DNA from: a virus
Strand: one strand, 5' to 3'
Length of the DNA: 32,850 bases
IMG/VR virus record: IMGVR_UViG_3300010163_000110
Coordinates: 1-32,850 of that record
Positions 20,967-32,850 of this stretch are shown here, in pieces. The notes below the pieces were generated by a model. That model saw nothing but the letters and a program-made list of their open reading frames with translations, was not told where the DNA came from and searched no databases. Position 1 is the first letter of the stretch. Every line of letters begins with the position of its first letter. The position numbers and the translations under genes are program-made.

Positions 20967-21484
20967 AGGCGATCGGGTATTTTGAAGAGCTGTTTATCGG
21001 CTTTTCGAATCCACGCCGGTTTTTCCATGCCGCCCAGCCGCAGCGGGGCAAAATCGTCCATCCGGGAGCCCGTACGCGCCATTTCGTTCAACATCTCGCC
21101 GTAGCTGTAGACCTTGCACCGTAAGTCGCACGACAACACATCCGCCATCGTGAAGGTACGGTATCGGCAATTCGCAAGTACCTGACCGATAGCGAAGTCC
21201 AACCGTTCGGCGCTCATCTCTGTTTTTGCGATCCGCTCGGCCAGCAGGATGAAGAACCCCCGGAAGTCGTCCCCGGCCATTGCCGGGAATGCCGCCCGGA
21301 GCTTCGCCAGGGAGGCGTGAATCTGCGCCGGCGGCGCCGGAGCGCCCCGGAACGCGGAAACTTCACAACTCCCACTCTTGCGGAGTGTTAGCGAGAGCAA
21401 TGCCTTCGGCGACGGCTTTTGCAAAGTCGAGATCGCTTGTTCGCGGAGCCTTTCCAGTGCCGCGCCCACATTGTGTTCGTTCAT
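20963..21484 (-). CDS. Hypothetical protein (173 aa), start uncertain
   Basis: The track ORF start at 21484 overlaps the upstream gene by 122 nt. The next in-frame ATG is at 21280. Confidence 0.4.
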   Translation of the reverse strand: MNEHNVGAALERLREQAISTLQKPSPKALLSLTLRKSGSCEVSAFRGAPAPPAQIHASLAKLRAAFPAMAGDDFRGFFILLAERIAKTEMSAERLDFAIGQVLANCRYRTFTMADVLSCDLRCKVYSYGEMLNEMARTGSRMDDFAPLRLGGMEKPAWIRKADKQLFKIPDRL

Positions 21485-22319
21485 CGCGTTTTTCGTTGTT
21501 CATTCGTTCTTCAGCTTTCCGCAAGTAGTTGCGAAAGTGTCGTTTAGCATCCGACAACGGCTTCACCGTCGCCCCGTTGAGTTTCTGCTCGGTGCAAAAT
21601 TCGTGGATCATTCCATCGATCCAATCCCGCGACTTGTGCAGGTTCATGCACAAAGCCTCGATCCACACCGTCTCCGCCTGCATCGCCGCCTCGAGCTGCT
21701 CGATCGGAATCGTTACGTCAGCCGCCGCGGCCGTCTCCGTACCTTTTTTCGCGCAACTTTTTTGGCTTTTCGGCGATTTTGGCGTAGAGTTAGGCGCACT
21801 TCCCCCGAAAATCGAAAGCTCTTCGCCCGCGATAGTGGAGGTAGAAGAAGATAATTCTCGACCGTTAGGGAGAGAATTATATATACTCTTCTCTTCTTGT
21901 ATTACATTTGTATTACATTTGTATTCGTCGGCCGATACATTTGTATTACATTTGTATCCTTCCGCTTCCTTTGCCCATCGCTTATTGATTGCAGCTCTAC
22001 GTTTTACGCTAATCTCGTCCTTCGATTTCATTCGCTTCAGGAAGCCGCCGGAGTAGAAGTACTTACCGTCATCGGTAAAGACAAATAACCCGTATCCCTC
22101 GACTACCGCCTTTATTTTGGCGGCGTCTACACGAAGGTCAAAGGCTAACATGTTGTAATCTTTGACACTCATGTAAGTAGGCTCCTCGCGCAGTCGCTCG
22201 AGAATCATAAAGTAGATGCCGTAACCCTCCGCACCCATTTTAGCACGAAGCGGAATCAGCTTGTCAGAGTTTCTCGCATTTGAATCGTGCGGAAACCAGT
22301 TGCGCTTGCTGTCCCCCAT
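21363..22319 (-). CDS. Replication initiation protein (DUF4373 / Lin1244-like N-terminal domain)
   Basis: WFPHDSNARNSDKLIPLRAKMGAEGYGIYFMILERL matches the DUF4373 opening from memory. The central linker is encoded by iterons. Confidence 0.7.
   Translation of the reverse strand: MGDSKRNWFPHDSNARNSDKLIPLRAKMGAEGYGIYFMILERLREEPTYMSVKDYNMLAFDLRVDAAKIKAVVEGYGLFVFTDDGKYFYSGGFLKRMKSKDEISVKRRAAINKRWAKEAEGYKCNTNVSADEYKCNTNVIQEEKSIYNSLPNGRELSSSTSTIAGEELSIFGGSAPNSTPKSPKSQKSCAKKGTETAAAADVTIPIEQLEAAMQAETVWIEALCMNLHKSRDWIDGMIHEFCTEQKLNGATVKPLSDAKRHFRNYLRKAEERMNNEKRDERTQCGRGTGKAPRTSDLDFAKAVAEGIALANTPQEWEL
21900..21957. repeat. Four 11-bp iterons TATTACATTTG (two pairs split by CGTCGGCCGA), candidate origin
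   Basis: Copies at 21900, 21911, 21933 (interrupted) and 21944. Flanked by an AT-rich stretch at 21868-21899. Confidence 0.6.
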
Positions 22320-25249: not shown

Positions 25250-25269
25250 TGCAGACCCGAACTTCCATC

Positions 25270-25398
25270 TTATTCATTTTCTTCGAAAAATTTGTCCATG
25301 AAACGAGCGAACGACGCCTTGCGCTGGTCGTTCTTCAGCCACGCCGCACCCGCGGCGATCGGTGCGATCAGGGCGACCGCGGAAAAGAGAGCTGCCAT
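25270..25398 (-). CDS. Possible 42-aa single-pass membrane peptide (not in ORF track)
   Basis: Hand translation gives MAALFSAVALIAPIAAGAAWLKNDQRKASFARFMDKFFEENE. The ATG lies 3 nt after the upstream TAA and fills an otherwise empty 150-nt gap. Confidence 0.3.
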   Translation of the reverse strand: MAALFSAVALIAPIAAGAAWLKNDQRKASFARFMDKFFEENE

Positions 25399-25401
25399 AG
25401 G

Positions 25402-25665
25402 TTAGCGGTTTAAATAGATCGAGACTAATGCCGACAGATCGTGGGCGACCATCATAGGATCGACGTTTCTGCGCTCCACGATGCGATTGCGGCAGAACCG
25501 CACGGCAATCGACATCGCGCAGCGGTAGACGTCGTCGAGGGTCAGCGGGGAACCGACGCCCCCTTGGAGGATTTCGAGAAGTTGGGCCTTTGTCAGGCGG
25601 CTGAATGGTGTAGCGCTGCGGATACTATTTTTCACCGCAACAGCGCTTTCAGAGGATTGTAGCAT
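25402..25665 (-). CDS. Hypothetical protein (87 aa), first gene after a structured leader
   Basis: Track ORF verified codon by codon. No family recognised. Confidence 0.5.
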   Translation of the reverse strand: MLQSSESAVAVKNSIRSATPFSRLTKAQLLEILQGGVGSPLTLDDVYRCAMSIAVRFCRNRIVERRNVDPMMVAHDLSALVSIYLNR

Positions 25666-25809
25666 AGGTCTGAAAGTTTAAAAATGTACAAAAAGAAAGG
25701 ACGGGCCTTTCGTGAATCTGCTACAATCCCATCGCCTTACGGTGATGCCTGAAAGGTCCGCCCTTATAGGGCTAATATGGAACCGTAAGAAGGTGGAATT
25801 GTAGCACTG

Positions 25810-25840
25810 CAAATATAGCTCTTTATTTTCATTTTGCAAA
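25810..25840 (-). promoter_or_regulatory. Bacteroidota sigma-A type promoter (-33 TTTG, 19-nt spacer, -7 TATATTTG)
   Basis: Minus strand reads TTTGcaaaatgaaaataaagagcTATATTTG, which matches the TAnnTTTG consensus with typical spacing. Located just after the methyltransferase stop. Confidence 0.55.
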
Positions 25841-25843
25841 CGA

Positions 25844-26659
25844 TTACTTTAAATTCTTGATGATTTCGCGCTCCCGGTCGGAGAGCTCCCAGATGATTTG
25901 CTTGCGTTGTACCTCTCTTTCTGCTGCTGCCCGGTCTGCCGCTGCCCGGTCTGCCGCTGCCCGGTCCGAAATCAGGTAACCGCCGCCGAAGATCGCCGTA
26001 TCGGTCTGGCTGTCGAGCTTGCGTACGAACTCGCACTCCGATCGGCAAATCCCAAAGTCCACGTGCCGCAGGCTGTATTTCGCGAAGTCTGAAACAGTCA
26101 TAACGTTCGACGGATAGACGTACTTTGGCATCGGGATCGTCTTGCTCTTTTGCGCCTCTTCGATGCGGTCTCTCAAGACGGGCGCCGACATCACGGCAAT
26201 ATCGCCGAATAGGTTCGATACGAAAGAGGTTTTAACTCGAGCTCCGTTTTCGTAGAGTATATCGGAATATGCTACGATCGACGTGCAATGACGCCCAGGC
26301 TGGAAGAGTGTGAGGTATGGAGCGAAGAGAAAGAACCGGACCCCGTGCTGCATGTAGAATCGGACGATGCGTGTAATGATCGAAAAAGGCGGGTTGTCGA
26401 TCACTACCGTGTCGTGCCCGTACTTTTCGGCCTCGAAGTCGCCGCCCGGCTTGAACGGACGCAGCACCTCGAGGCCGTCGATCAGGCAATTTTCGCGCAC
26501 CCACTCGAGCACCGCATCGTAGACGGCCGGCGGCGTGTAGCAATCGTCGGTCGTAAGTTTCGGCTTGAACTTTTCGACGAAGTCAGTGTAATTCGCCGAC
26601 TTCTTTCGCGTCGGTTTTGCGACGTGTGCCGAAACATCGAAGAGGGTCTGTTCCGTCAT
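25844..26659 (-). CDS. DNA N6-adenine methyltransferase (putative)
   Basis: Motif IV-like VIDNPPFS and an upstream DDCYTPP. C-terminal (DRAAA)x3 is encoded by 15-bp repeats. Confidence 0.65.
   Translation of the reverse strand: MTEQTLFDVSAHVAKPTRKKSANYTDFVEKFKPKLTTDDCYTPPAVYDAVLEWVRENCLIDGLEVLRPFKPGGDFEAEKYGHDTVVIDNPPFSIITRIVRFYMQHGVRFFLFAPYLTLFQPGRHCTSIVAYSDILYENGARVKTSFVSNLFGDIAVMSAPVLRDRIEEAQKSKTIPMPKYVYPSNVMTVSDFAKYSLRHVDFGICRSECEFVRKLDSQTDTAIFGGGYLISDRAAADRAAADRAAAEREVQRKQIIWELSDREREIIKNLK
25926..25967. repeat. 15-bp tandem repeat GCTGCCCGGTCTGCC, about 2.8 copies
   Basis: Read directly. In frame within the methyltransferase 3' end. Confidence 0.8.
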
Positions 26660-26862
26660 CTGGATGCTTCAATTTCAATTCCGAACCTCTTCCGAAGCCG
26701 GTCCATGAATTTCGGGTTTTCGGCCTGCTGCTGGGTGATGTAGATCACCGTGCTTCGGTCGACACGGATCGGGATGGTTCGGTCTGCGTTTGTTGTTTTT
26801 GCAGCGTTCAGCACCTCCAAAGCCTTGCGGCGGTTGTGTATAAAGGAAGATTCGAGAGCCAT
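26656..26862 (-). CDS. Hypothetical protein (68 aa)
   Basis: Track ORF. Its stop forms an ATGA overlap with the methyltransferase start. Confidence 0.5.
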   Translation of the reverse strand: MALESSFIHNRRKALEVLNAAKTTNADRTIPIRVDRSTVIYITQQQAENPKFMDRLRKRFGIEIEASR

Positions 26863-26865
26863 AAT

Positions 26866-27252
26866 TTAATCGCTTGGATTGTCGTAGATGTTCCCAACTA
26901 TTTCGACGATAGCACCTGGAGACAATTGTATAGAGACGACCCCGTTAGGTCCTTCTCTATTTGCCATAAAGCACCCGTTACTAAATGTTACGTACCGTAT
27001 TTCCCCATCCTGGTATTTCAACAAGTCTCCTTCGTATATATCGGTCCCGTTTTTATCGTGTAGGCCAGTGAATTGGCCGATAGTTTCAGGGTAAACCAGC
27101 TTGATTGTAAAGTCGCTATCGTGGGACCCAAAGTCCCCGACATGGAATGCGACACCAGTCTGCCCTGTTGTTGAGGCGATTAAATAGCCGATCGCCCATC
27201 GTTTGTTCTCAAGCCGTTTCCCCCTAAATAAAACGGATTCTACCTCTCTCAT
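26866..27252 (-). CDS. YopX-family protein
   Basis: TIGQFTGLHDKNGTDIYEGDLL ... VEIVGNIYDNPS matches the YopX signature. Confidence 0.8.
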   Translation of the reverse strand: MREVESVLFRGKRLENKRWAIGYLIASTTGQTGVAFHVGDFGSHDSDFTIKLVYPETIGQFTGLHDKNGTDIYEGDLLKYQDGEIRYVTFSNGCFMANREGPNGVVSIQLSPGAIVEIVGNIYDNPSD

Positions 27253-27620
27253 TGTCTGTGTCCCAATTTAATTATAAAGCAATCATGATCGGGAGCGCCC
27301 CATTCCGGACGTCCGCGGCCGATTGTGATGCCCTTGCACTCGAACGTCATCCGACGCTTTGTGTAGCCATAGGAGAAACACACGGCGTCGAAGCGTTTAG
27401 CCATCGCTCTCATAGATTTCAACGCATGATGCCTGTCCCGCACACTCCTCAACATAGCGATACAGTCTTCCCATGATTGATAGTCATCGTCAAAGTGACG
27501 TCCGACAAACAATAGGCGTCTCACCCAGTAGTCGGTAATCTCACGGTACTCCTCGGTCTTTTCGCCGTGCTCTATCATCTCGTACCACTCTTTTTTGAGA
27601 GTGAGGTAAAGTGTGTCCAT
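27249..27620 (-). CDS. ASCH-domain-like protein
   Basis: The opening LTLKKEWYEMIEHGEKTEEYRE resembles ASCH/PUA-like domains. 123 aa. Confidence 0.5.
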   Translation of the reverse strand: MDTLYLTLKKEWYEMIEHGEKTEEYREITDYWVRRLLFVGRHFDDDYQSWEDCIAMLRSVRDRHHALKSMRAMAKRFDAVCFSYGYTKRRMTFECKGITIGRGRPEWGAPDHDCFIIKLGHRQ

Positions 27621-28451
27621 TTAAAAAAGTTTTTGTTCCCTTTCTTCCCAATCCATTTGTTTCTCGATTTCCTGCACTGTTTTGCCGTATCTGAATCCGT
27701 AGCTGCATAAGTTCGGCGTGTGGCTCAATTCGACCAGCTCCGCCCATAATTCGGGATGATTGCGTCGCAGACCGATGAATTGGCGCAGATGGCAATTCGG
27801 GCAAAACCAGCATCCGCCGCGCATCCCGGATTCGTAGACAGGCGACAACAGGTCGTGTCGCTTGCACAGTTCTTTCGCCATTTGCTCGGTGTAGCCGTAT
27901 TTCGCCAAAAGCGATATTTTGTTGCCAGAGAGCCGCGCCAGTCGCTTCGGCTCATCCAAAGCGATACCGATATACTGCACAATATTCATTGTAGCACGTA
28001 GTGGCCCGCCCGCGATTTCCGCGAGGTATTTTCGTATAGGCGCGACTTTGCAATCCCGATTGATAAAACATTTTCCGCCGATCGGGAACCCGTAAATCTT
28101 CCCCGCATGACGCCCCCCCCCGACGGCATTTGCGAAAAAATAGCAGTAATCCCGTTCTGAACGTACCACATCGACGTATACGCCCATGTCGCGCAGCTTC
28201 GGGATGGCCGTCCCGTAAATCCAATCGATATGCTCCGGAATCTCGCCGCTAATGCCTCGTGAGTGGTCGAACATCACCTCCGAGAACACTACCCGGTCGA
28301 GAGGTTCGCCGTGTTCGAGGGAAAGGAGTATCGTTGCGATACTATCCTTCCCGAACGAACAAGCGGCTATATAAACCGGTCTCTGGAGCTTATTTTTTCC
28401 TGTTACCATATCGTTATGTAATTCCCTACGATTCGGTCCTTTAATCTTCAT
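27621..28451 (-). CDS. PAPS-reductase-family PP-loop enzyme
   Basis: Start at the internal ATG at 28451 (MKIKG). PP-loop-like SFGKDS. C-terminal Cys cluster GGCWFCPNC. Confidence 0.7.
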   Translation of the reverse strand: MKIKGPNRRELHNDMVTGKNKLQRPVYIAACSFGKDSIATILLSLEHGEPLDRVVFSEVMFDHSRGISGEIPEHIDWIYGTAIPKLRDMGVYVDVVRSERDYCYFFANAVGGGRHAGKIYGFPIGGKCFINRDCKVAPIRKYLAEIAGGPLRATMNIVQYIGIALDEPKRLARLSGNKISLLAKYGYTEQMAKELCKRHDLLSPVYESGMRGGCWFCPNCHLRQFIGLRRNHPELWAELVELSHTPNLCSYGFRYGKTVQEIEKQMDWEEREQKLF

Positions 28452-28500
28452 CGTTGTTTTCGTAAAATCAAAAAAAACACGCTGAAAATTGGCGCATGCG

Positions 28501-29331
28501 TCATTTTTTGAAGAACTCCGCAAAAGTATTAGCACCGAAGTGTCCTTTTGTCAGTTCGATGATCTCGGCGATCGTGTAGGTAGGCTTCTTCTCGCTTTCC
28601 GGGAGGATGTTTTCGACGAAGTTTCGCGTACCGGCAGCGCATGCGCCGGTGATAACGCGATAGGCCTCGATCGCTTCTTGGAAGCTCAACTCGGAATCCG
28701 CCGTTAATCCTTTGTATCGGCTTGTATCTCGGTTCGCGATCTTGTACAATAGATCGCGACGCGCTTCTTGGATCGTGTCACCGTGCGCCCATCGACCGGC
28801 GCCGTCTGTAATGAGCCACGTCTCCTCTTTTCTGCCAATCCTTCGAACCTTGTAAAGATTGCCATGCCTGTTGATTATCTGCTGGAACACTCCGTCGGCT
28901 TTTATAAACGACCGATCGCGCCACCGCCAAAAATAGACAGAAGGGGCCTTCCGGTTTACACGGCTTGTATCGGTGATGCCCGTGCCGCTCAAGTCCAAAG
29001 ACCCGGAGACCGTGAGACCCTCCGGCAGCGAGGTGATGCCCGTGCCGCGCAAATAGAGGGCACCGCCGACCGTGAGACCCTCCGGCAGCGAGGTGATGCC
29101 CGTGCCGCTCAAGTCCAAAGACCCGGAGACCGTGAGACCCTCCGGCAGCGAGGTGATGCCCGTGCCGCTCAAGTCCAAAGACCCGCCGACCGTGAGACCC
29201 TCCGGCAGCGAGGTGATGCCCGTGCCGCGCAAGTCCAAATAGCCGCCATATAAGCCCTCTTCGTTTAAAAGCTGTAGGTCCCCCCACTTTTCAATGAATC
29301 TGCGAATCTTTTCGATGTTCTTCGTTCCCAT
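28501..29331 (-). CDS. Leucine-rich-repeat-like protein: about five 20-aa repeats plus a conserved uncharacterised C-terminal domain
   Basis: L(D/Y)L(S/R)GTGITSLPEGLTV(G/S)G(S/A) is repeated in tandem (LxLxxTxIxxLPxxLxV). The C-terminal AHGDTIQEARRDLLYK ... YRVITGACAAGTRNF region was not recognised as a named family. Confidence 0.65.
   Translation of the reverse strand: MGTKNIEKIRRFIEKWGDLQLLNEEGLYGGYLDLRGTGITSLPEGLTVGGSLDLSGTGITSLPEGLTVSGSLDLSGTGITSLPEGLTVGGALYLRGTGITSLPEGLTVSGSLDLSGTGITDTSRVNRKAPSVYFWRWRDRSFIKADGVFQQIINRHGNLYKVRRIGRKEETWLITDGAGRWAHGDTIQEARRDLLYKIANRDTSRYKGLTADSELSFQEAIEAYRVITGACAAGTRNFVENILPESEKKPTYTIAEIIELTKGHFGANTFAEFFKK
28973..29250. repeat. 60-bp tandem repeat, about 4.6 copies, near-identical
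   Basis: Blocks 28981-29040 and 29101-29160 are identical, and 29161-29220 differs from them by 2 nt. In frame in the LRR gene. Confidence 0.9.
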
Positions 29332-29335
29332 TGTG

Positions 29336-29650
29336 CTATTGTTTTTTGGATTTCATTAAATAGGTTTCGATACTTTTTTTGTCGTATTTCCAAAGCCCGC
29401 CGACCTTCACGCGCTCGATTTCCCCGCGATCGGCGAGGGAGTAGAGTGTCCATCGGGAGGTGCAAAGCATCTCGCTGGCCTCTTTGAGGTCGAGCAGCGC
29501 GCCAGTCTCTTCGGGGGCTTTCGGCTGCGATCGGTAGCGTTCGACGGCCTTTTGGGCTGCAGCCTCTGCCAGGTGGAGGAGGTCGCGTTTGTAGACCAGG
29601 AACCGCGCATCGGGCGGTGCAGATTCGAAGTCTGAAAGTCTGTAGGTCAT
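29336..29650 (-). CDS. Excisionase-family / MerR-like HTH DNA-binding protein
   Basis: LLDLKEASEMLCTSRWTLYSLADRGEIERVKVGGLWKYDKKSIETYL fits the HTH_17 excisionase-type pattern. Confidence 0.55.
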   Translation of the reverse strand: MTYRLSDFESAPPDARFLVYKRDLLHLAEAAAQKAVERYRSQPKAPEETGALLDLKEASEMLCTSRWTLYSLADRGEIERVKVGGLWKYDKKSIETYLMKSKKQ

Positions 29651-30417
29651 TGAGTGTCTCTTTTATTTGCTCCCCGGAGCCCGATCAAAGGCGCCGGGGA
29701 AAGGGCCGCGGGCTTCACAGCAGGCGGCGCCGAATACGTTACTCCTATAAATTGCTTATGACAGCCCCATCCCGGCTTGATACCGGCGGCAAAAAGATGT
29801 GAAAGGCGGGGCCAGCTCCTTGCGCCCGCCGGTCCGGTCAAGGCCCGGCGGACATATAGGTTCGCGCTCGGCGGGTCGCCCCGCGTCATCGCTGCGTAGT
29901 CGGATATTGTTGGCACGTCCAGCGGGGATCCCCGCTGCGCCCCTACTCCCGTCCGTTTCGGTTGTCGGTTTAGACACTTGTCGGAGGCTCGCTCCGAGGT
30001 GTGGTCTCGCATGTAAAGAGCGCGGCGATCGCTTTGTGGTGGGGTTGTTGCCAGCGATCGAAACCCCTCGGCACGGCGGTGCCGGCGTTGCGGCCGTTGT
30101 CGGATTCGAACCGACGGCGCGGCGGGTTGGAAAGCGAGCTCTTCCCGCCGGCCTCCTTTCGGCCTTGTGCGGGGTTGAGAGGCCCCGCGCCTCCGCGGTC
30201 TTTCCCGCGCGTCGATCCTAACACAATCCGTTGCCGTCTTTCCGGCTGCCAGCCTTTGCCCAAGATTCCGCTTAAATTGTGCCCTCCACGGTTTGTGCAT
30301 AAAATGCTGCCTCTCAAAGAATCCTCGGCGCGGTGCTGCCGCATCTTTAGCATCTTGGGCCCCACCCGAACGGCGGCCACCGCTCACGCTCATATAGGAG
30401 GGACACCGCGCCTTTGT
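29651..30417 (-). ncRNA. Candidate large structured non-coding RNA region (strand not established)
   Basis: A 767-nt gap with only Arg/Pro/Gly-rich shadow ORFs. Very GC-rich, with many strong hairpins. End-to-end 9-bp complementarity and a tRNA-like T-arm on the minus strand at 30099-30115. Confidence 0.35.
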
Positions 30418-30669
30418 CTATTTCGATCGGAGCCGGCCTCGGAAGTCGCCGAACGGTGTGTCGATGCCGTACGACTTGAACACTTTGAGCACCGCGTTGT
30501 ATTTGTCGACCTTAAGCTGGACTTTCCCGTTCGCGTAGTGTTCGAGCGCCTGCCGGTTCTTCACCCCGATTGCCTTCTTCAGGGCTTCCGTCGCTTTCGG
30601 CACCTGGTATACGCGAAGCATCGAAAGACCGCGGCGGAAGCGTGTGTCGATCGGTTTTTGCTGTTCCAT
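30418..30669 (-). CDS. Cro-like small regulator (83 aa)
   Basis: Divergent from the XRE repressor gene across a 185-bp AT-rich region. HTH-like TEALKKAIGVKNRQALEHYANGK. Confidence 0.45.
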   Translation of the reverse strand: MEQQKPIDTRFRRGLSMLRVYQVPKATEALKKAIGVKNRQALEHYANGKVQLKVDKYNAVLKVFKSYGIDTPFGDFRGRLRSK

Positions 30670-30854
30670 ACCATTTTAATCGCTATTTATTTGCTTTTTG
30701 TACGTTTTTTATTACCTTGTGTTATATCTCTCATTAACACAATGCAAATGTATAACAAAATGAATTAAAAACCAAATATTTTTACAACGTTTTGATATAA
30801 TTTAATTGTTGTATGTTGTAACAATTTGTAATTCAATAAAATAATTTTGTGCTT
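30670..30854. promoter_or_regulatory. Divergent switch region with promoter boxes and operators
   Basis: Minus-strand -33 TTTG, then a 19-20 nt spacer, then -7 TACATTTG (30745-30752). Plus-strand TAATTTTG (30842-30849) ends 5 nt before the ATG at 30855. Inverted repeat TTGTGTTA-N10-TAACACAA (30717-30742). TTGTAACAA at 30816-30824. Confidence 0.5.
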
Positions 30855-31199
30855 ATGAATAATATCTTAGAAAACATTAAGTCTATTCGCCAATCTTTGG
30901 GGTTTGGGCAGGAATACATGGCCGAGAAGTTGAACATGACGCAGGCCGGTTATGCGTTATGGGAGAAGGGAGCCAGGGAATTGACCTATAACAATCTGAA
31001 TAGAATCGCCGAAATCTTTTCAATGAGTGTCATCGATGTGATTGCCTATCCGAAACATTATGTTGATTCTTCGACCTTTTCGAACCCGAAGGATGACAAA
31101 GTGTCCGTAATATTTGAAGTTAGCAGATCGCAGCGCGATTATTTACTGCGACTTGTTATGGGAGATGATAAAAAAATAATAAATGTCAATGGAGATTAA
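30855..31199 (+). CDS. XRE-family HTH repressor (CI-like)
   Basis: IKSIRQSLGFGQEYMAEKLNMTQAGYALWEKGARELTYNNLNRIAEIF is a classical HTH_3 domain. ATG at 30855 is preferred over the GTG at 30849. Confidence 0.8.
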   Translation: MNNILENIKSIRQSLGFGQEYMAEKLNMTQAGYALWEKGARELTYNNLNRIAEIFSMSVIDVIAYPKHYVDSSTFSNPKDDKVSVIFEVSRSQRDYLLRLVMGDDKKIINVNGD

Positions 31200-31617
31200 A
31201 GAGGTCAAATACAACGAATATTATGAAAAAGAAATAAATAATCTATATACATTCATCGAAAAATGCGAAGATGATTTTGAAAACAAAATAACCTATGTTT
31301 CTGCCGGGGCTTTAGGTTTTGCTATAAACTTTTTAGAAAAGAGTGGTGATAGTTTTTGCACATTTCCACTCAAGTGTTGCATTGCTTTATTCTTTATCTC
31401 TCTATTATCTGGCACTTTAGCCCCTTACATTATTTCAAGAATGGCTATAAAAATAAAGGGACACATACACAAAGCTAAAGATGACGGGGTGCAACAAGAC
31501 TTCACTAAAAATACGAAGACCCTAACGAAATGGTCTAATTTATCTAACAAATTAACTATTTATTGCTTATTTATTGGAGCATTTATATTCTCTATCTATT
31601 TATTTTTTAAATACTAA
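31183..31617 (+). CDS. Unrecognised membrane protein (144 aa, 2-3 TM)
   Basis: Overlaps the repressor stop by 17 nt. Hydrophobic segments CCIALFFISLLSGTLAPYII and LTIYCLFIGAFIFSIYLFF. Confidence 0.6.
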   Translation: MSMEIKEVKYNEYYEKEINNLYTFIEKCEDDFENKITYVSAGALGFAINFLEKSGDSFCTFPLKCCIALFFISLLSGTLAPYIISRMAIKIKGHIHKAKDDGVQQDFTKNTKTLTKWSNLSNKLTIYCLFIGAFIFSIYLFFKY

Positions 31618-31627
31618 TTTTATAAAT

Positions 31628-31771
31628 ATGGATGAATTAAAAAAAGGTTACACAACACCATCTAATCCTTCTACCAAAACATCCGAGGCTTTTGGAAACA
31701 CTAAAATTAGAAGCGATAAATTTACAAGGCATTACGAACCAAGTAGGCCCCCAAAAGAACCAAAAAAATGA
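31628..31771 (+). CDS. Small basic, low-complexity protein (47 aa)
   Basis: ATG at 31628 (MDELKKGY). Its stop forms an ATGA overlap with the next gene. Confidence 0.35.
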   Translation: MDELKKGYTTPSNPSTKTSEAFGNTKIRSDKFTRHYEPSRPPKEPKK

Positions 31772-32223
31772 AAAAAGTTTTAATTACATTGCTTTACTTG
31801 TTTATAACAAGTAGCGCCTATTGTCAGATTCAAGTAGGGAGAGAGAAAACAAAAATAGAGACGATTGGAAACATTCGTAAAGAGACCTATATCTATAAGC
31901 AAAATGGGATGTATTATCTTGATTTGGGGACGAGTAATCAATTCGACCAAGCTATAATTTTCAACTTGGGGACAGGAAAAGAAGCCGCATTAAAATCGTG
32001 TGACGATTTGGCCGCATTATGCGAGACGTTAGATAAGGATGAATTTGTAGAAATAATTGATGCAGAGGGCCAAAATTTTAGTATTACAAAACAAAATGAC
32101 AATAAAAATGGCCTTGCTCTCATTAATTTTTTTGCAAAAGATCAAATACACGCCGGAACTATAGGCCTTTTTAAAATGGATATAAACAAGATAAAAAAGA
32201 AGATTGAACAATATAATAAATGA
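31768..32223 (+). CDS. Unrecognised secreted or lipoprotein-like protein (151 aa)
   Basis: Signal peptide MKKVLITLLYLFITSSAYC. Last gene before terminator 32260-32288. Confidence 0.6.
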   Translation: MKKVLITLLYLFITSSAYCQIQVGREKTKIETIGNIRKETYIYKQNGMYYLDLGTSNQFDQAIIFNLGTGKEAALKSCDDLAALCETLDKDEFVEIIDAEGQNFSITKQNDNKNGLALINFFAKDQIHAGTIGLFKMDINKIKKKIEQYNK

Positions 32224-32259
32224 ACCACTTTTTTTACATATACTCATAACATTATAGGA

Positions 32260-32288
32260 ATAGGCGCCTTCCCCGGCGCCTATCTTTT
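32260..32288 (+). terminator. Rho-independent terminator of the repressor operon
   Basis: ATAGGCGCC-ttcccc-GGCGCCTAT followed by CTTTT. Confidence 0.75.
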
Positions 32289-32493
32289 AGAATAGAATCT
32301 GGTAACAACTGAACTCGACGGGGACTACCTCGTCGCACTCGGGGGCGTTGTCGGGGCGCTGGTTGCCGTATTAGAAGGCGATGATCTTGCCTCCGTTGAG
32401 GTAGATAGCTGCACCTTTCCATGATGTTGACAATGCAAAGGCACAACGATTTTCCGAATCCGCAAATTTTTTTGCACTTTTTTTGCGGAAATA

Positions 32494-32534
32494 GTTCACA
32501 AAAATTGTGAACAATCGAAAAAAAAGCTATCTTT
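32494..32534 (+). promoter_or_regulatory. Palindromic operator GTTCACAA-AAA-TTGTGAAC upstream of the -7 box TATCTTTG
   Basis: Perfect 8-bp arms at 32494-32512. TAnnTTTG match at 32527-32534, about 24 nt before the ATG at 32558. Confidence 0.5.
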
Positions 32535-32557
32535 GCATAACGAAAAAAACGAAATGT

Positions 32558-32797
32558 ATGCCTACCGTTTTGAACTTGTTCGGCCTCCGCTTCTACTTCT
32601 ATTCAAATGAGCACCAGCCCGTACACATCCACATAGAGAAGGACGGAGACGATGCGAAGATAGAGGTCGCAACGCGCACGGTGGTTTATAATCATGGTAT
32701 AAAGGCCAACGACCTGCGCCGCGCGTTGGAGATCATCGAAATGTATGAGGCCGAAATATACGAAAAGTGGTACAGTTATTTCAATGAAAATCAATAG
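32558..32797 (+). CDS. DUF4160-family protein
   Basis: MPTVLNLFGLRFYFYSNEHQPVHIHIEKDGDDAKI matches the DUF4160 opening. Start at the internal ATG rather than the track start at 32507. Confidence 0.7.
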   Translation: MPTVLNLFGLRFYFYSNEHQPVHIHIEKDGDDAKIEVATRTVVYNHGIKANDLRRALEIIEMYEAEIYEKWYSYFNENQ

Positions 32798-32800
32798 AAT

Positions 32801-32850
32801 ATGGAACGTATTTTAAAAACATGGACCGCGGGCGATTGGTTATATATTGC
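32801..32850 (+). CDS. Partial CDS, probably the DUF2442-like partner (runs off the window)
   Basis: ATG at 32801 lies 3 nt after the DUF4160 stop (MERILKTWTAGDWLYI). Partner identity inferred from the usual DUF4160-DUF2442 pairing. Confidence 0.35.
   Translation, partial: MERILKTWTAGDWLYI

Follow-up and report, generated by a model that had tools for sequence, protein, structure and literature searches.

What does an otherwise tightly packed temperate phage keep in a 767-nucleotide (nt) gap directly behind its cro-like gene? The phage is IMG/VR virus record IMGVR_UViG_3300010163_000110, of which we analysed positions 1 to 32,850 (this whole stretch of 32,850 nt is called the window). The gap, at positions 29651-30417, had been described in an earlier note as a GC-rich, hairpin-dense block free of open reading frames (ORFs) and as a candidate large structured RNA. 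Large structured non-coding RNAs are rare, and the few known from phages, GOLLD and ROOL, form remarkable RNA-only assemblies. With a probability of roughly 0.6, we propose that the block encodes a conserved structured RNA of several domains, ~600-750 nt long, and is neither a gene, intact or decayed, nor a DNA site. The earlier observation is thus partly confirmed, and its core interpretation is supported once homologues are added. We show that the block is conserved, non-coding and subject to base-pair covariation; the transcription, strand, processing and biological role of its RNA are inferred.

The earlier note placed the gap correctly. It extends from the stop codon TAG of the cro-like gene (30418-30420) to the ATG of the next gene (29650) and is by far the largest in this tightly packed, one-strand genome. 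Its GC content of 63% is not unusual here, since 500-nt windows of the phage span 0.44-0.63. The motifs quoted in the note also lie where it put them, except for the second copy of CCTATATG, which is at 29853-29860, one base off. The locus is made up as follows.

30418-30669, minus strand: cro-like gene, 83 amino acids (aa), downstream of the Bacteroidota-type -7 motif TACATTTG at 30745-30752 and continued on its 3' side by the block
29651-30417, minus strand: conserved non-coding block, with its well-supported structured part at ~29830-30398
29336-29650, minus strand: next gene, HTH_17 / excisionase-like, 104 aa (Pfam PF12728, phrog_66)

Relatives and conservation of the block

Relatives came solely from Logan assemblies, in which Cro and its 90% cluster were looked up as exact proteins. 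These look-ups yielded two lineages besides the window, namely L001, which is ~98% identical to the window, and a group of small contigs, L004 to L008, whose Cro is 82% identical to that of the window. This second group (the L005 lineage) aligned at ~74% identity with window positions 30686-29552, which start upstream of cro and reach 33 codons into the next gene, and the block aligned over its full length with the L005, L006, L007 and L008 contigs (74-76% identity). Only the first ~33 codons of the next gene are common to the L005 lineage, whose flanks differ: it has no integrase/CI module, and the region corresponding to ~25250-29550 of the window is absent. Because the flanking modules differ, the promoter, cro, the block and the start of the next gene are inherited together as a unit.

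Other searches returned no relative of the block. A 'distant' blastn comparison with 50,697 phage records found no match. Neither did scans of IMG/VR, which were protein-based with the neighbouring genes or used DNA patterns partly tolerant of covarying positions. The exact patterns tried on GTDB representative genomes (the T-arm plus acceptor 24-mer, and the invariant stretch) gave 0 matches. Scanning JGI metagenomes with the palindrome 22-mer gave only two unrelated chance matches (L002 and L003), and the HTH_17 neighbour gene has no relatives other than in L001. The phage is thus rare, and the block, found in three lineages, is extremely rare. A captured host fragment, which the earlier note had listed as a possible refutation, is not what emerged: blastn against phages and the GTDB patterns gave no match, and the block is conserved in related phages.

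Between the window and L005, the block differs at 174 of 729 aligned sites (24%), versus 44 of the 83 third codon positions of cro (53%). By this comparison the block evolves at less than half the near-neutral rate without being coding. Its conservation is uneven: in 50-column bins, identity reaches 82-90% at some places of the 3' half and falls to 42-60% across a spacer (29733-29790).

One large difference separates L001 from the window. A segment of 221 nt (30192-30412, minus strand), bounded by the 8-nt direct repeat AGGCGCGG, is deleted in L001. The deletion is derived, since the diverged lineage (L004, L005) still has the segment.

The open frame over the block

Taken literally, the statement that the block is free of ORFs was wrong. 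Read in phase with cro, the minus strand runs through the gap for 256 codons without a stop; a fully open frame occurs in 0.2% of dinucleotide shuffles for that frame and in 1.2% for any frame. It holds a called gene.

29647-30393, minus strand: ATG ORF of 248 aa, ending in an ATGA overlap with the next gene and present in the JGI annotation as a hypothetical protein (protein P0001)

The composition of this ORF is not that of a gene. Its GC content by codon position is flat (0.66/0.62/0.61), in contrast with ~0.55/0.41/0.70 in the real genes of the phage, and a codon-usage log-odds score trained on those genes is negative in all six frames. No relative other than itself was found in 5.8 billion protein clusters, none in an exhaustive HMMER search of 1.84 billion representatives, and it has no Pfam or PHROG match. 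The frame is not kept in the relatives. The 221-nt deletion of L001, which is not a multiple of 3, breaks it, and the L005 lineage differs from the window by 19 indels in the block, mostly non-multiples of three, with at least three stops in every frame. In L005, the frame that follows the cro TAG closes 138 nt (~46 codons) into the block. Substitutions between the window and L005 are spread evenly over the codon positions in the block (56/59/59), in contrast with cro (12/9/44) and the first 33 codons of the next gene (7/4/16). In no jointly open stretch, on either strand, is there an excess of synonymous over nonsynonymous change; nonsynonymous changes dominate everywhere.

Because the 248-aa ORF lacks periodicity, relatives, a conserved frame, third-position-biased substitutions and a synonymous excess, we judge it to be non-coding, a false gene call and a database error. 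In this sense the claim that no credible ORF exists holds, and the homologues reveal neither a conserved protein frame nor a decayed gene. Read-through or recoding of the Cro TAG was also considered and rejected, as the in-frame open frame exists only in the window. In L005 and L008, the downstream gene has been called so long that it reaches into the block.

Covariation and strand

A curated model of 138 pairs was scored on alignment A5, with six slid registers as controls. Standard pairs make up 95% of the cells, versus 35-45% in the slid registers, and 16 pairs have changed on both sides yet still pair, versus 0-2. Double changes are found in at least eight helices across ~570 nt. Divergence amounts to 16.5% in paired columns and 26.1% in unpaired ones. 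These compensatory pairs, together with the conservation and the lack of a coding signature, bear out the structured RNA candidate, and the covariation that the earlier note had proposed to look for among homologues is present, across one deep split. The alignment folds better than its column shuffles (z = -4.6 on the sense strand), whereas the single sequence folds only weakly better than shuffles of itself (minus strand, z = -1.9; plus strand, z = -0.4).

The strand had been left open, on the ground that the T-arm helix extends to 9 bp on the plus strand. This extension is absent in L005. In the sense model, the numbers of G-U and A-C pairs are 10 and 0 in the window and 9 and 4 in L005, several covarying helices hold a G-U pair whose counterpart on the opposite strand would not pair, and the T-loop consensus reads correctly only on the minus strand. 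These three features make the operon (minus) strand the likely RNA strand. No second copy or conserved antisense target of the block was found elsewhere in the phage.

Several points weigh against the structured RNA. The relatives used for covariation are two well-diverged lineages plus near-identical variants, and the covariation comes from a single deep split, which is beyond the reach of R-scape-type statistics. The antisense alignment folds equally well (z = -5.0), and the hairpin at 29672-29699 fits the plus strand better in L005. The whole 5' domain is missing from L001, so that either this domain is dispensable or L001 is defective. The tRNA-like element described below has no D-arm, no normal anticodon arm and no encoded CCA, and its acceptor has 5-6 pairs, not 7; because of these absences, and because tRNA models reject the element, its recognition by RNase P is only putative. 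Lastly, the curated structure was drawn with both sequences in view. For this reason, a fold of the window alone was scored in L005, where 17 of the doubly changed pairs were kept and 4 broken; in the reverse test, with the L005 fold scored in the window, 18 were kept and 7 broken. The identical procedure applied to a coding control, 1.5 kb common to both phages, had a near-even outcome: over eight tests, the sums were 23 kept and 31 broken.

A tRNA-like module

Near the middle of the block, a T-arm without a full cloverleaf had been noticed on the minus strand. It belongs to a larger predicted unit.

30091-30165, minus strand: tRNA-sized three-way junction of ~74 nt, recovered by RNAalifold unaided on 106 nt
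30160-30164 with 30092-30096, minus strand: acceptor-like stem of the junction
30125-30156, minus strand: long interrupted arm at the anticodon-arm place of the junction
30099-30115, minus strand: T-arm GTCGG-TTCGAAT-CCGAC, with a 5-bp stem and a 7-nt UUCRANY loop closed by G-C

The T-arm is well supported. Its stem covaries from GTCGG/CCGAC to GCAGG/CCTGC (two double changes) and its loop UUCGAAU is invariant. By chance, a 5-bp Watson-Crick stem with TTCGAAT arose in 1 of 20,000 dinucleotide shuffles; relaxing the T-loop pattern raised this to 37 of 20,000. RNAalifold added a sixth acceptor pair, which is A-G in the window, C-G in L001 and U-A in L005. No tRNA or tmRNA was called in the block by ARAGORN at default settings or by the Rfam tRNA and tmRNA models even at E <= 10. 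With ARAGORN thresholds lowered to 80%, the output was noisy, with inconsistent anticodons and no stable call. The acceptor strands of the junction are 63 nt apart, unlike those of the tmRNA domain, which is built from the 5' and 3' ends.

Two simpler origins were rejected. The T-arm plus acceptor differs from the tRNA-Leu that flanks the phage and is thus not a copy of it. Nor does it look like a fossil tRNA or an attachment (att) fragment: it has no genomic match in GTDB, and its stem covaries.

Other structural parts of the predicted RNA

The remaining parts are given 5' to 3' in the RNA.

30258-30398, minus strand: 5' domain, branched, with a hairpin at 30361-30398 that holds three G-U pairs
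30352-30360 with 30258-30266, minus strand: long-range helix, its strands ~90 nt apart, enclosing arms at 30297-30351 and 30268-30291
30194-30209, minus strand: small conserved hairpin, just upstream, in the RNA, of the GCGGGG hairpin
30169-30188, minus strand: hairpin GCGGGG-N8-CCCCGC, with two double changes (G-C to U-A, G-C to C-G)
30069-30084, minus strand: hairpin CGGCAC-CGCC-GUGCCG, with one double change (A-U to G-C); its closing pair is lost in L005
30026-30067, minus strand: pseudoknot-compatible set GGGGTT/AACCCC plus CGATCGCT/AGCGATCG, mostly conserved
30014-30021, minus (sense) strand: boxA-like octamer GCUCUUUA, ~12 nt upstream of the next hairpin
29974-30002, minus strand: hairpin ACAC-C-UCGGAG-CGAGC-CUCCGA-CAA-GUGU, with invariant outer ACAC/GUGU
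29947-29982, minus strand: longest invariant stretch, 36 nt, GACAAGUGUCUAAACCGACAACCGAAACGGACGGGA, the same in the window and L005 despite 24% divergence
29849-29955, minus strand: 3' domain, modelled as one long interrupted hairpin that contains the palindrome 29920-29937
29871-29884, minus strand: GCGGG-GCGA-CCCGC segment within the 3' domain
29830-29847, minus strand: hairpin with one double change and one C-G to U-G
within 29791-29847, 3' of the preceding hairpin, minus strand: GGGC/GCCC stem plus U-rich tract UUUCACAUCUUUUU, a weak terminator-like feature
29733-29790, minus strand: the poorly conserved spacer
29703-29731, minus strand: invariant hairpin with a GUGA loop
29672-29699, minus strand: hairpin CCCCGG.../...CCGGGG, its inner pairs broken on the sense strand in L005 and G-U if antisense

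The strongest support in the 5' domain comes from the long-range helix, with three double changes and one C-G to U-G, and from an arm nested within it, with four double changes. The hairpin at 29974-30002 has three of its six inner pairs doubly changed (UCGGAG/CUCCGA to UCCGGA/UCCGGA). The GCGGGG/CCCCGC hairpin, already pointed out from the single sequence, is upheld by its double changes and has one G-A mismatch in L001.

Two other proposals fare less well. Both helices of the suggested pseudoknot are present and mostly conserved; nevertheless, each has one uncompensated mismatch in L005, without covariation, and a pseudoknot at 30026-30067 is possible. The palindrome at 29920-29937 is present, while as the simple CAGCGGG hairpin first suggested it would have a G-A mismatch in L005. 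The nested model of the 3' domain fits better: all 15 substitutions plus indels fall in its 66 unpaired columns and none in its 42 paired ones. There is no covariation in this domain (29849-29955).

Toward the 3' end, the terminator-like feature in 29791-29847 is only loosely conserved, and a consensus scan found no sense-strand intrinsic terminator in either lineage. The hairpins at 29672-29731 come immediately before the next gene's A-rich leader and ATG.

Codons ~10-15 of cro (30623-30637) are complementary, at 14 of 15 positions, to 30190-30204, which covers the 3' strand and flank of the small hairpin 30194-30209. The complementarity is partly kept in L005, with one A-U replaced by U-G. 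It could reflect long-range pairing or chance.

Comparison with known RNAs and alternative explanations

No Rfam family matched the block in the window, L001 or L005, at the gathering threshold or at E <= 10. As there was no match in three sequences even at this permissive limit, the block is not a GOLLD, ROOL, HEARO, tmRNA, Y RNA, ribozyme, intron or riboswitch as currently modelled, which agrees with the failure to match it to any family by eye. The RNA region is real and rare and belongs to no described family, while its broad kind is known, that of structured RNAs of phage early operons or of large phage non-coding RNAs. As a phage or prophage RNA, it would exceed 500 nt and contain many covarying helices.

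The block resembles GOLLD (RF01998) and ROOL (RF03087) in being phage-encoded, several hundred nt long, rich in helices and associated with tRNA. In GOLLD, tRNAs are sometimes present in a linker region (PMC12286853), whereas here a tRNA-like junction would be embedded in the RNA itself. Unlike those RNAs, the block matches no covariance model at any threshold tried and is found in three lineages only. Its place is in an immediate-early operon, directly after cro, rather than in a tRNA island; neither a promoter nor a terminator of its own is evident, and the phage is of the Bacteroides type.

The tRNA-like module calls for a second comparison. The P1 C4 RNA is a phage RNA processed by RNase P, and YrlA is a bacterial Y RNA encoded next to rsr (Ro60). 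With these two and the tRNA-like domain of tmRNA, the block shares a GG-UUCGAAU-CC T-arm stacked on an acceptor-like stem, in a unit of ~74 nt within a larger RNA. Unlike them, it has no D-arm, 7-nt anticodon loop, CCA, tag reading frame or Ro60-binding stem. No Ro60-like product was seen among the 25 window proteins scanned against Pfam and PHROGs, a search that was not exhaustive for Ro60.

Among the alternatives, the block could be a purely cis-acting leader of the early operon that is never released. Its boxA-like octamer and hairpin would promote processive antitermination in the manner of a nut or put site and its other folds would act on RNA polymerase, with a weak terminator and translational-control hairpins for the next gene downstream of the antitermination module. 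Lambda nutR-tR1 and HK022 putR are located directly after cro, ahead of the delayed-early genes. The block occupies the same position, where it has a candidate single-stranded boxA-like octamer, then a short hairpin and a weak terminator-like feature downstream. The octamer GCUCUUUA is on the sense strand, fits the core of boxA and precedes a covarying hairpin by ~12 nt; it is one of two such matches in the window, where 0.7 are expected over the whole length. It matches the first eight positions of the boxA consensus GYTCTTTAANA (PMC5725501), which is gamma-proteobacterial and may not be that of the host. Further points in favour of a leader are the hairpin plus U-tract at 29791-29830, the conserved hairpins adjoining the leader of the next gene and the lack of a promoter motif in the block.

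Nevertheless, nut and put sites span tens of nt, whereas the constrained, multi-domain structure here covers ~600 nt, about ten times what they need. In L005, the counterpart of the octamer is GCUCUUUUA, with one extra U, so that the boxA match is imperfect in this relative, and we treat the octamer only as a lead. The loop of the downstream hairpin is CGAGC or CGAGU and not of the boxB type, which in lambda is a GNRA-like pentaloop. Unlike in lambda, no N-like protein or gene was identified in the phage, and the failure of the terminator-like feature in the consensus scan also speaks against a leader alone. We consider this explanation possible but doubtful.

An unlikely alternative is that the block encodes a free-standing, trans-acting large 'ornate' phage RNA like GOLLD or ROOL. 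Such an RNA might form multimers, or target tRNA, translation or defence factors of the host, and its tRNA-like arm would be the counterpart of the tRNAs that accompany some GOLLD RNAs. The size, multi-domain fold and phage origin of the block agree with it, as do the embedded tRNA-like module and the strong constraint over hundreds of nt. However, the Rfam searches, run as permissively as described, returned neither family, the block lacks its own promoter as well as a clear terminator, its location is an immediate-early operon, L001 does without the 5' domain, and three lineages make for extreme rarity.

Much less probable still is that the block is functionless or acts as DNA, be it a decayed gene, a captured host fragment, an insertion resembling a miniature inverted-repeat transposable element (MITE), or a replication, attachment or operator site. 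A perfect 9-bp inverted repeat near both ends would suit it, as would one operator-like half-site, TAACACAAT, at 30219-30227, and the T-arm could be the fossil 3' half of a tRNA as carried in att sites. The terminal repeat, which the earlier note had taken for an end-to-end pairing, is however lost in L005 and is one of six perfect 9-bp inverted repeats listed in a 1.3-kb stretch; an insertion of the MITE or terminal-inverted-repeat type was rejected on account of this loss. The T-arm plus acceptor 24-mer occurs in no GTDB representative genome and differs from the flanking tRNA-Leu. A replication origin in the block was likewise rejected, as iterons are found instead at 21897-21957. The block evolves below half the synonymous rate, and its compensatory changes keep pairing, including in a helix that spans 90 nt, which is not the behaviour of DNA sites or junk. 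Among the 50,697 phage records, blastn found no match.

That the block encodes a protein, either the 248-aa ORF or an extension of Cro by read-through past its in-frame TAG, is scarcely credible: its stop-free frame and ATGA overlap stand against the absent codon periodicity and negative codon score, the lack of relatives and domain matches, the frame broken in L001 and repeatedly shifted and stopped in the L005 lineage, and the flat, mostly nonsynonymous substitutions.

Possible mechanism and significance

For the conserved structured RNA, the possible classes of mechanism would be processing at the tRNA-like module and/or nut-like antitermination. No promoter motif of the Bacteroidota type was found inside the block. 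For this reason the block is probably transcribed from the early promoter (-7 motif at 30745-30752) as a continuation of the cro message. Host tRNA enzymes could then recognise the stacked acceptor and T-arm. RNase P would cut on the 5' side of the module and a 3' tRNA-end nuclease on the other side, and T-loop modifiers may act on it as well. With such cuts, cro and the delayed-early genes would end up on separate messages, and stable pieces of structured RNA would be set free. The boxA-like octamer and its hairpin may additionally load host Nus factors, like a nut site at that position. As a whole, this scheme is tentative, and we give it rather less than an even chance.

Bolder, and doubtful though conceivable, is the proposal that the block is the founding member of a new class of large Bacteroidota phage RNAs, an RNA-only machine of ~600 nt with a tRNA mimic, made at the start of the lytic programme. 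If this were true, the mimic would engage host tRNA enzymes, the ribosome or a tRNA-targeting defence, and the class would have a standing like that of GOLLD and ROOL while being unrelated to them.

Under the structured-RNA reading, the block would be a new example, unrelated to GOLLD and ROOL. It would lie in a defined regulatory spot, directly behind cro and controlled by the lysis-lysogeny switch, and its phage would be one of Bacteroidota, a dominant gut phylum. Its tRNA-like handle suggests concrete work with RNase P and T-loop modification enzymes. A database error, a 248-aa 'protein' annotated over the block, is also corrected. More generally, temperate phages can carry, in the gaps next to cro, much more RNA structure than a classical nut or put site.

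The phage and its other features

The window represents almost an entire temperate tailed phage. About 30 kb of genes are all on the minus strand, with the cro-like gene (30418-30669) as the rightmost. Terminase, portal, protease and endolysin genes are represented among the window proteins, and the minus-strand genes include those of the large terminase (TerL), a replication initiator and an exonuclease VIII-like protein. A host tRNA-Leu(CAG) lies at 6-90 (ARAGORN, Rfam), followed by a perfect hairpin with a T-run (~97-125); positions 6-125 are presumably the host flank, on the attachment side of the prophage. The integrase falls outside the window, past its right end, to judge from L001, where it is at 239-1567.

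To the right of cro is a low-GC lysogeny module, with a CI-like helix-turn-helix (HTH) gene on the plus strand (30849-31199). The GC content drops abruptly from ~0.6 to 0.31-0.40 across this divergent module (30680-32850), which suggests that it was acquired from a different, low-GC source.

TerL is 47% identical to terminases of Bacteroides fragilis siphophages, -7 motifs of the Bacteroidota type (TAnnTTTG) are enriched in the window (22 versus 11 expected), and gene leaders are A-rich and without a Shine-Dalgarno sequence. Two of the -7 motifs flank the cro/CI switch, at 30745-30752 (minus strand) and 30842-30849 (plus strand). The terminase, the motifs and the leaders make a bacterium of the Bacteroidota with moderately high GC the most likely host.

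In the diverged lineage, homologues of the left-end genes (296-1522, endolysin region) are joined directly to a divergent gene of 106 aa and cro (L005 1-2216, L006, L012 and L013), and the HTH_17 gene is reduced to a stub of 49-72 aa. These contigs represent either a non-integrating derivative or a circularly permuted genome.

The iterons at 21897-21957 consist of an 11-nt unit, TTGTATTACAT, repeated ~5.5 times, with four TACATTTG motifs. They lie inside the replication-initiator gene (21363-22319, minus strand) and are probably the phage origin; the lambda origin sits in the same arrangement, within gene O. Nearby, 179 nt (22050-22228) share 81% DNA identity with 'replication initiation protein' genes of the Lactobacillus brevis phages JNU_P2 and JNU_P4, an odd cross-phylum match and the sole megablast hit of the right 12.8 kb against the 50,697 phage records.

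Two other tandem repeats were seen. A 60-nt unit (4.6 copies, 28972-29247) encodes leucine-rich-repeat-like units in gene 28501-29331 (minus strand), whose product has 276 aa in the window and 237 aa in L001, so that near-identical phages differ in repeat number. A 15-nt unit, TCTGCCGCTGCCCGG, is present in 3.1 copies with 96% identity at 25920-25966, within gene 25844-26659 (phrog_21498).

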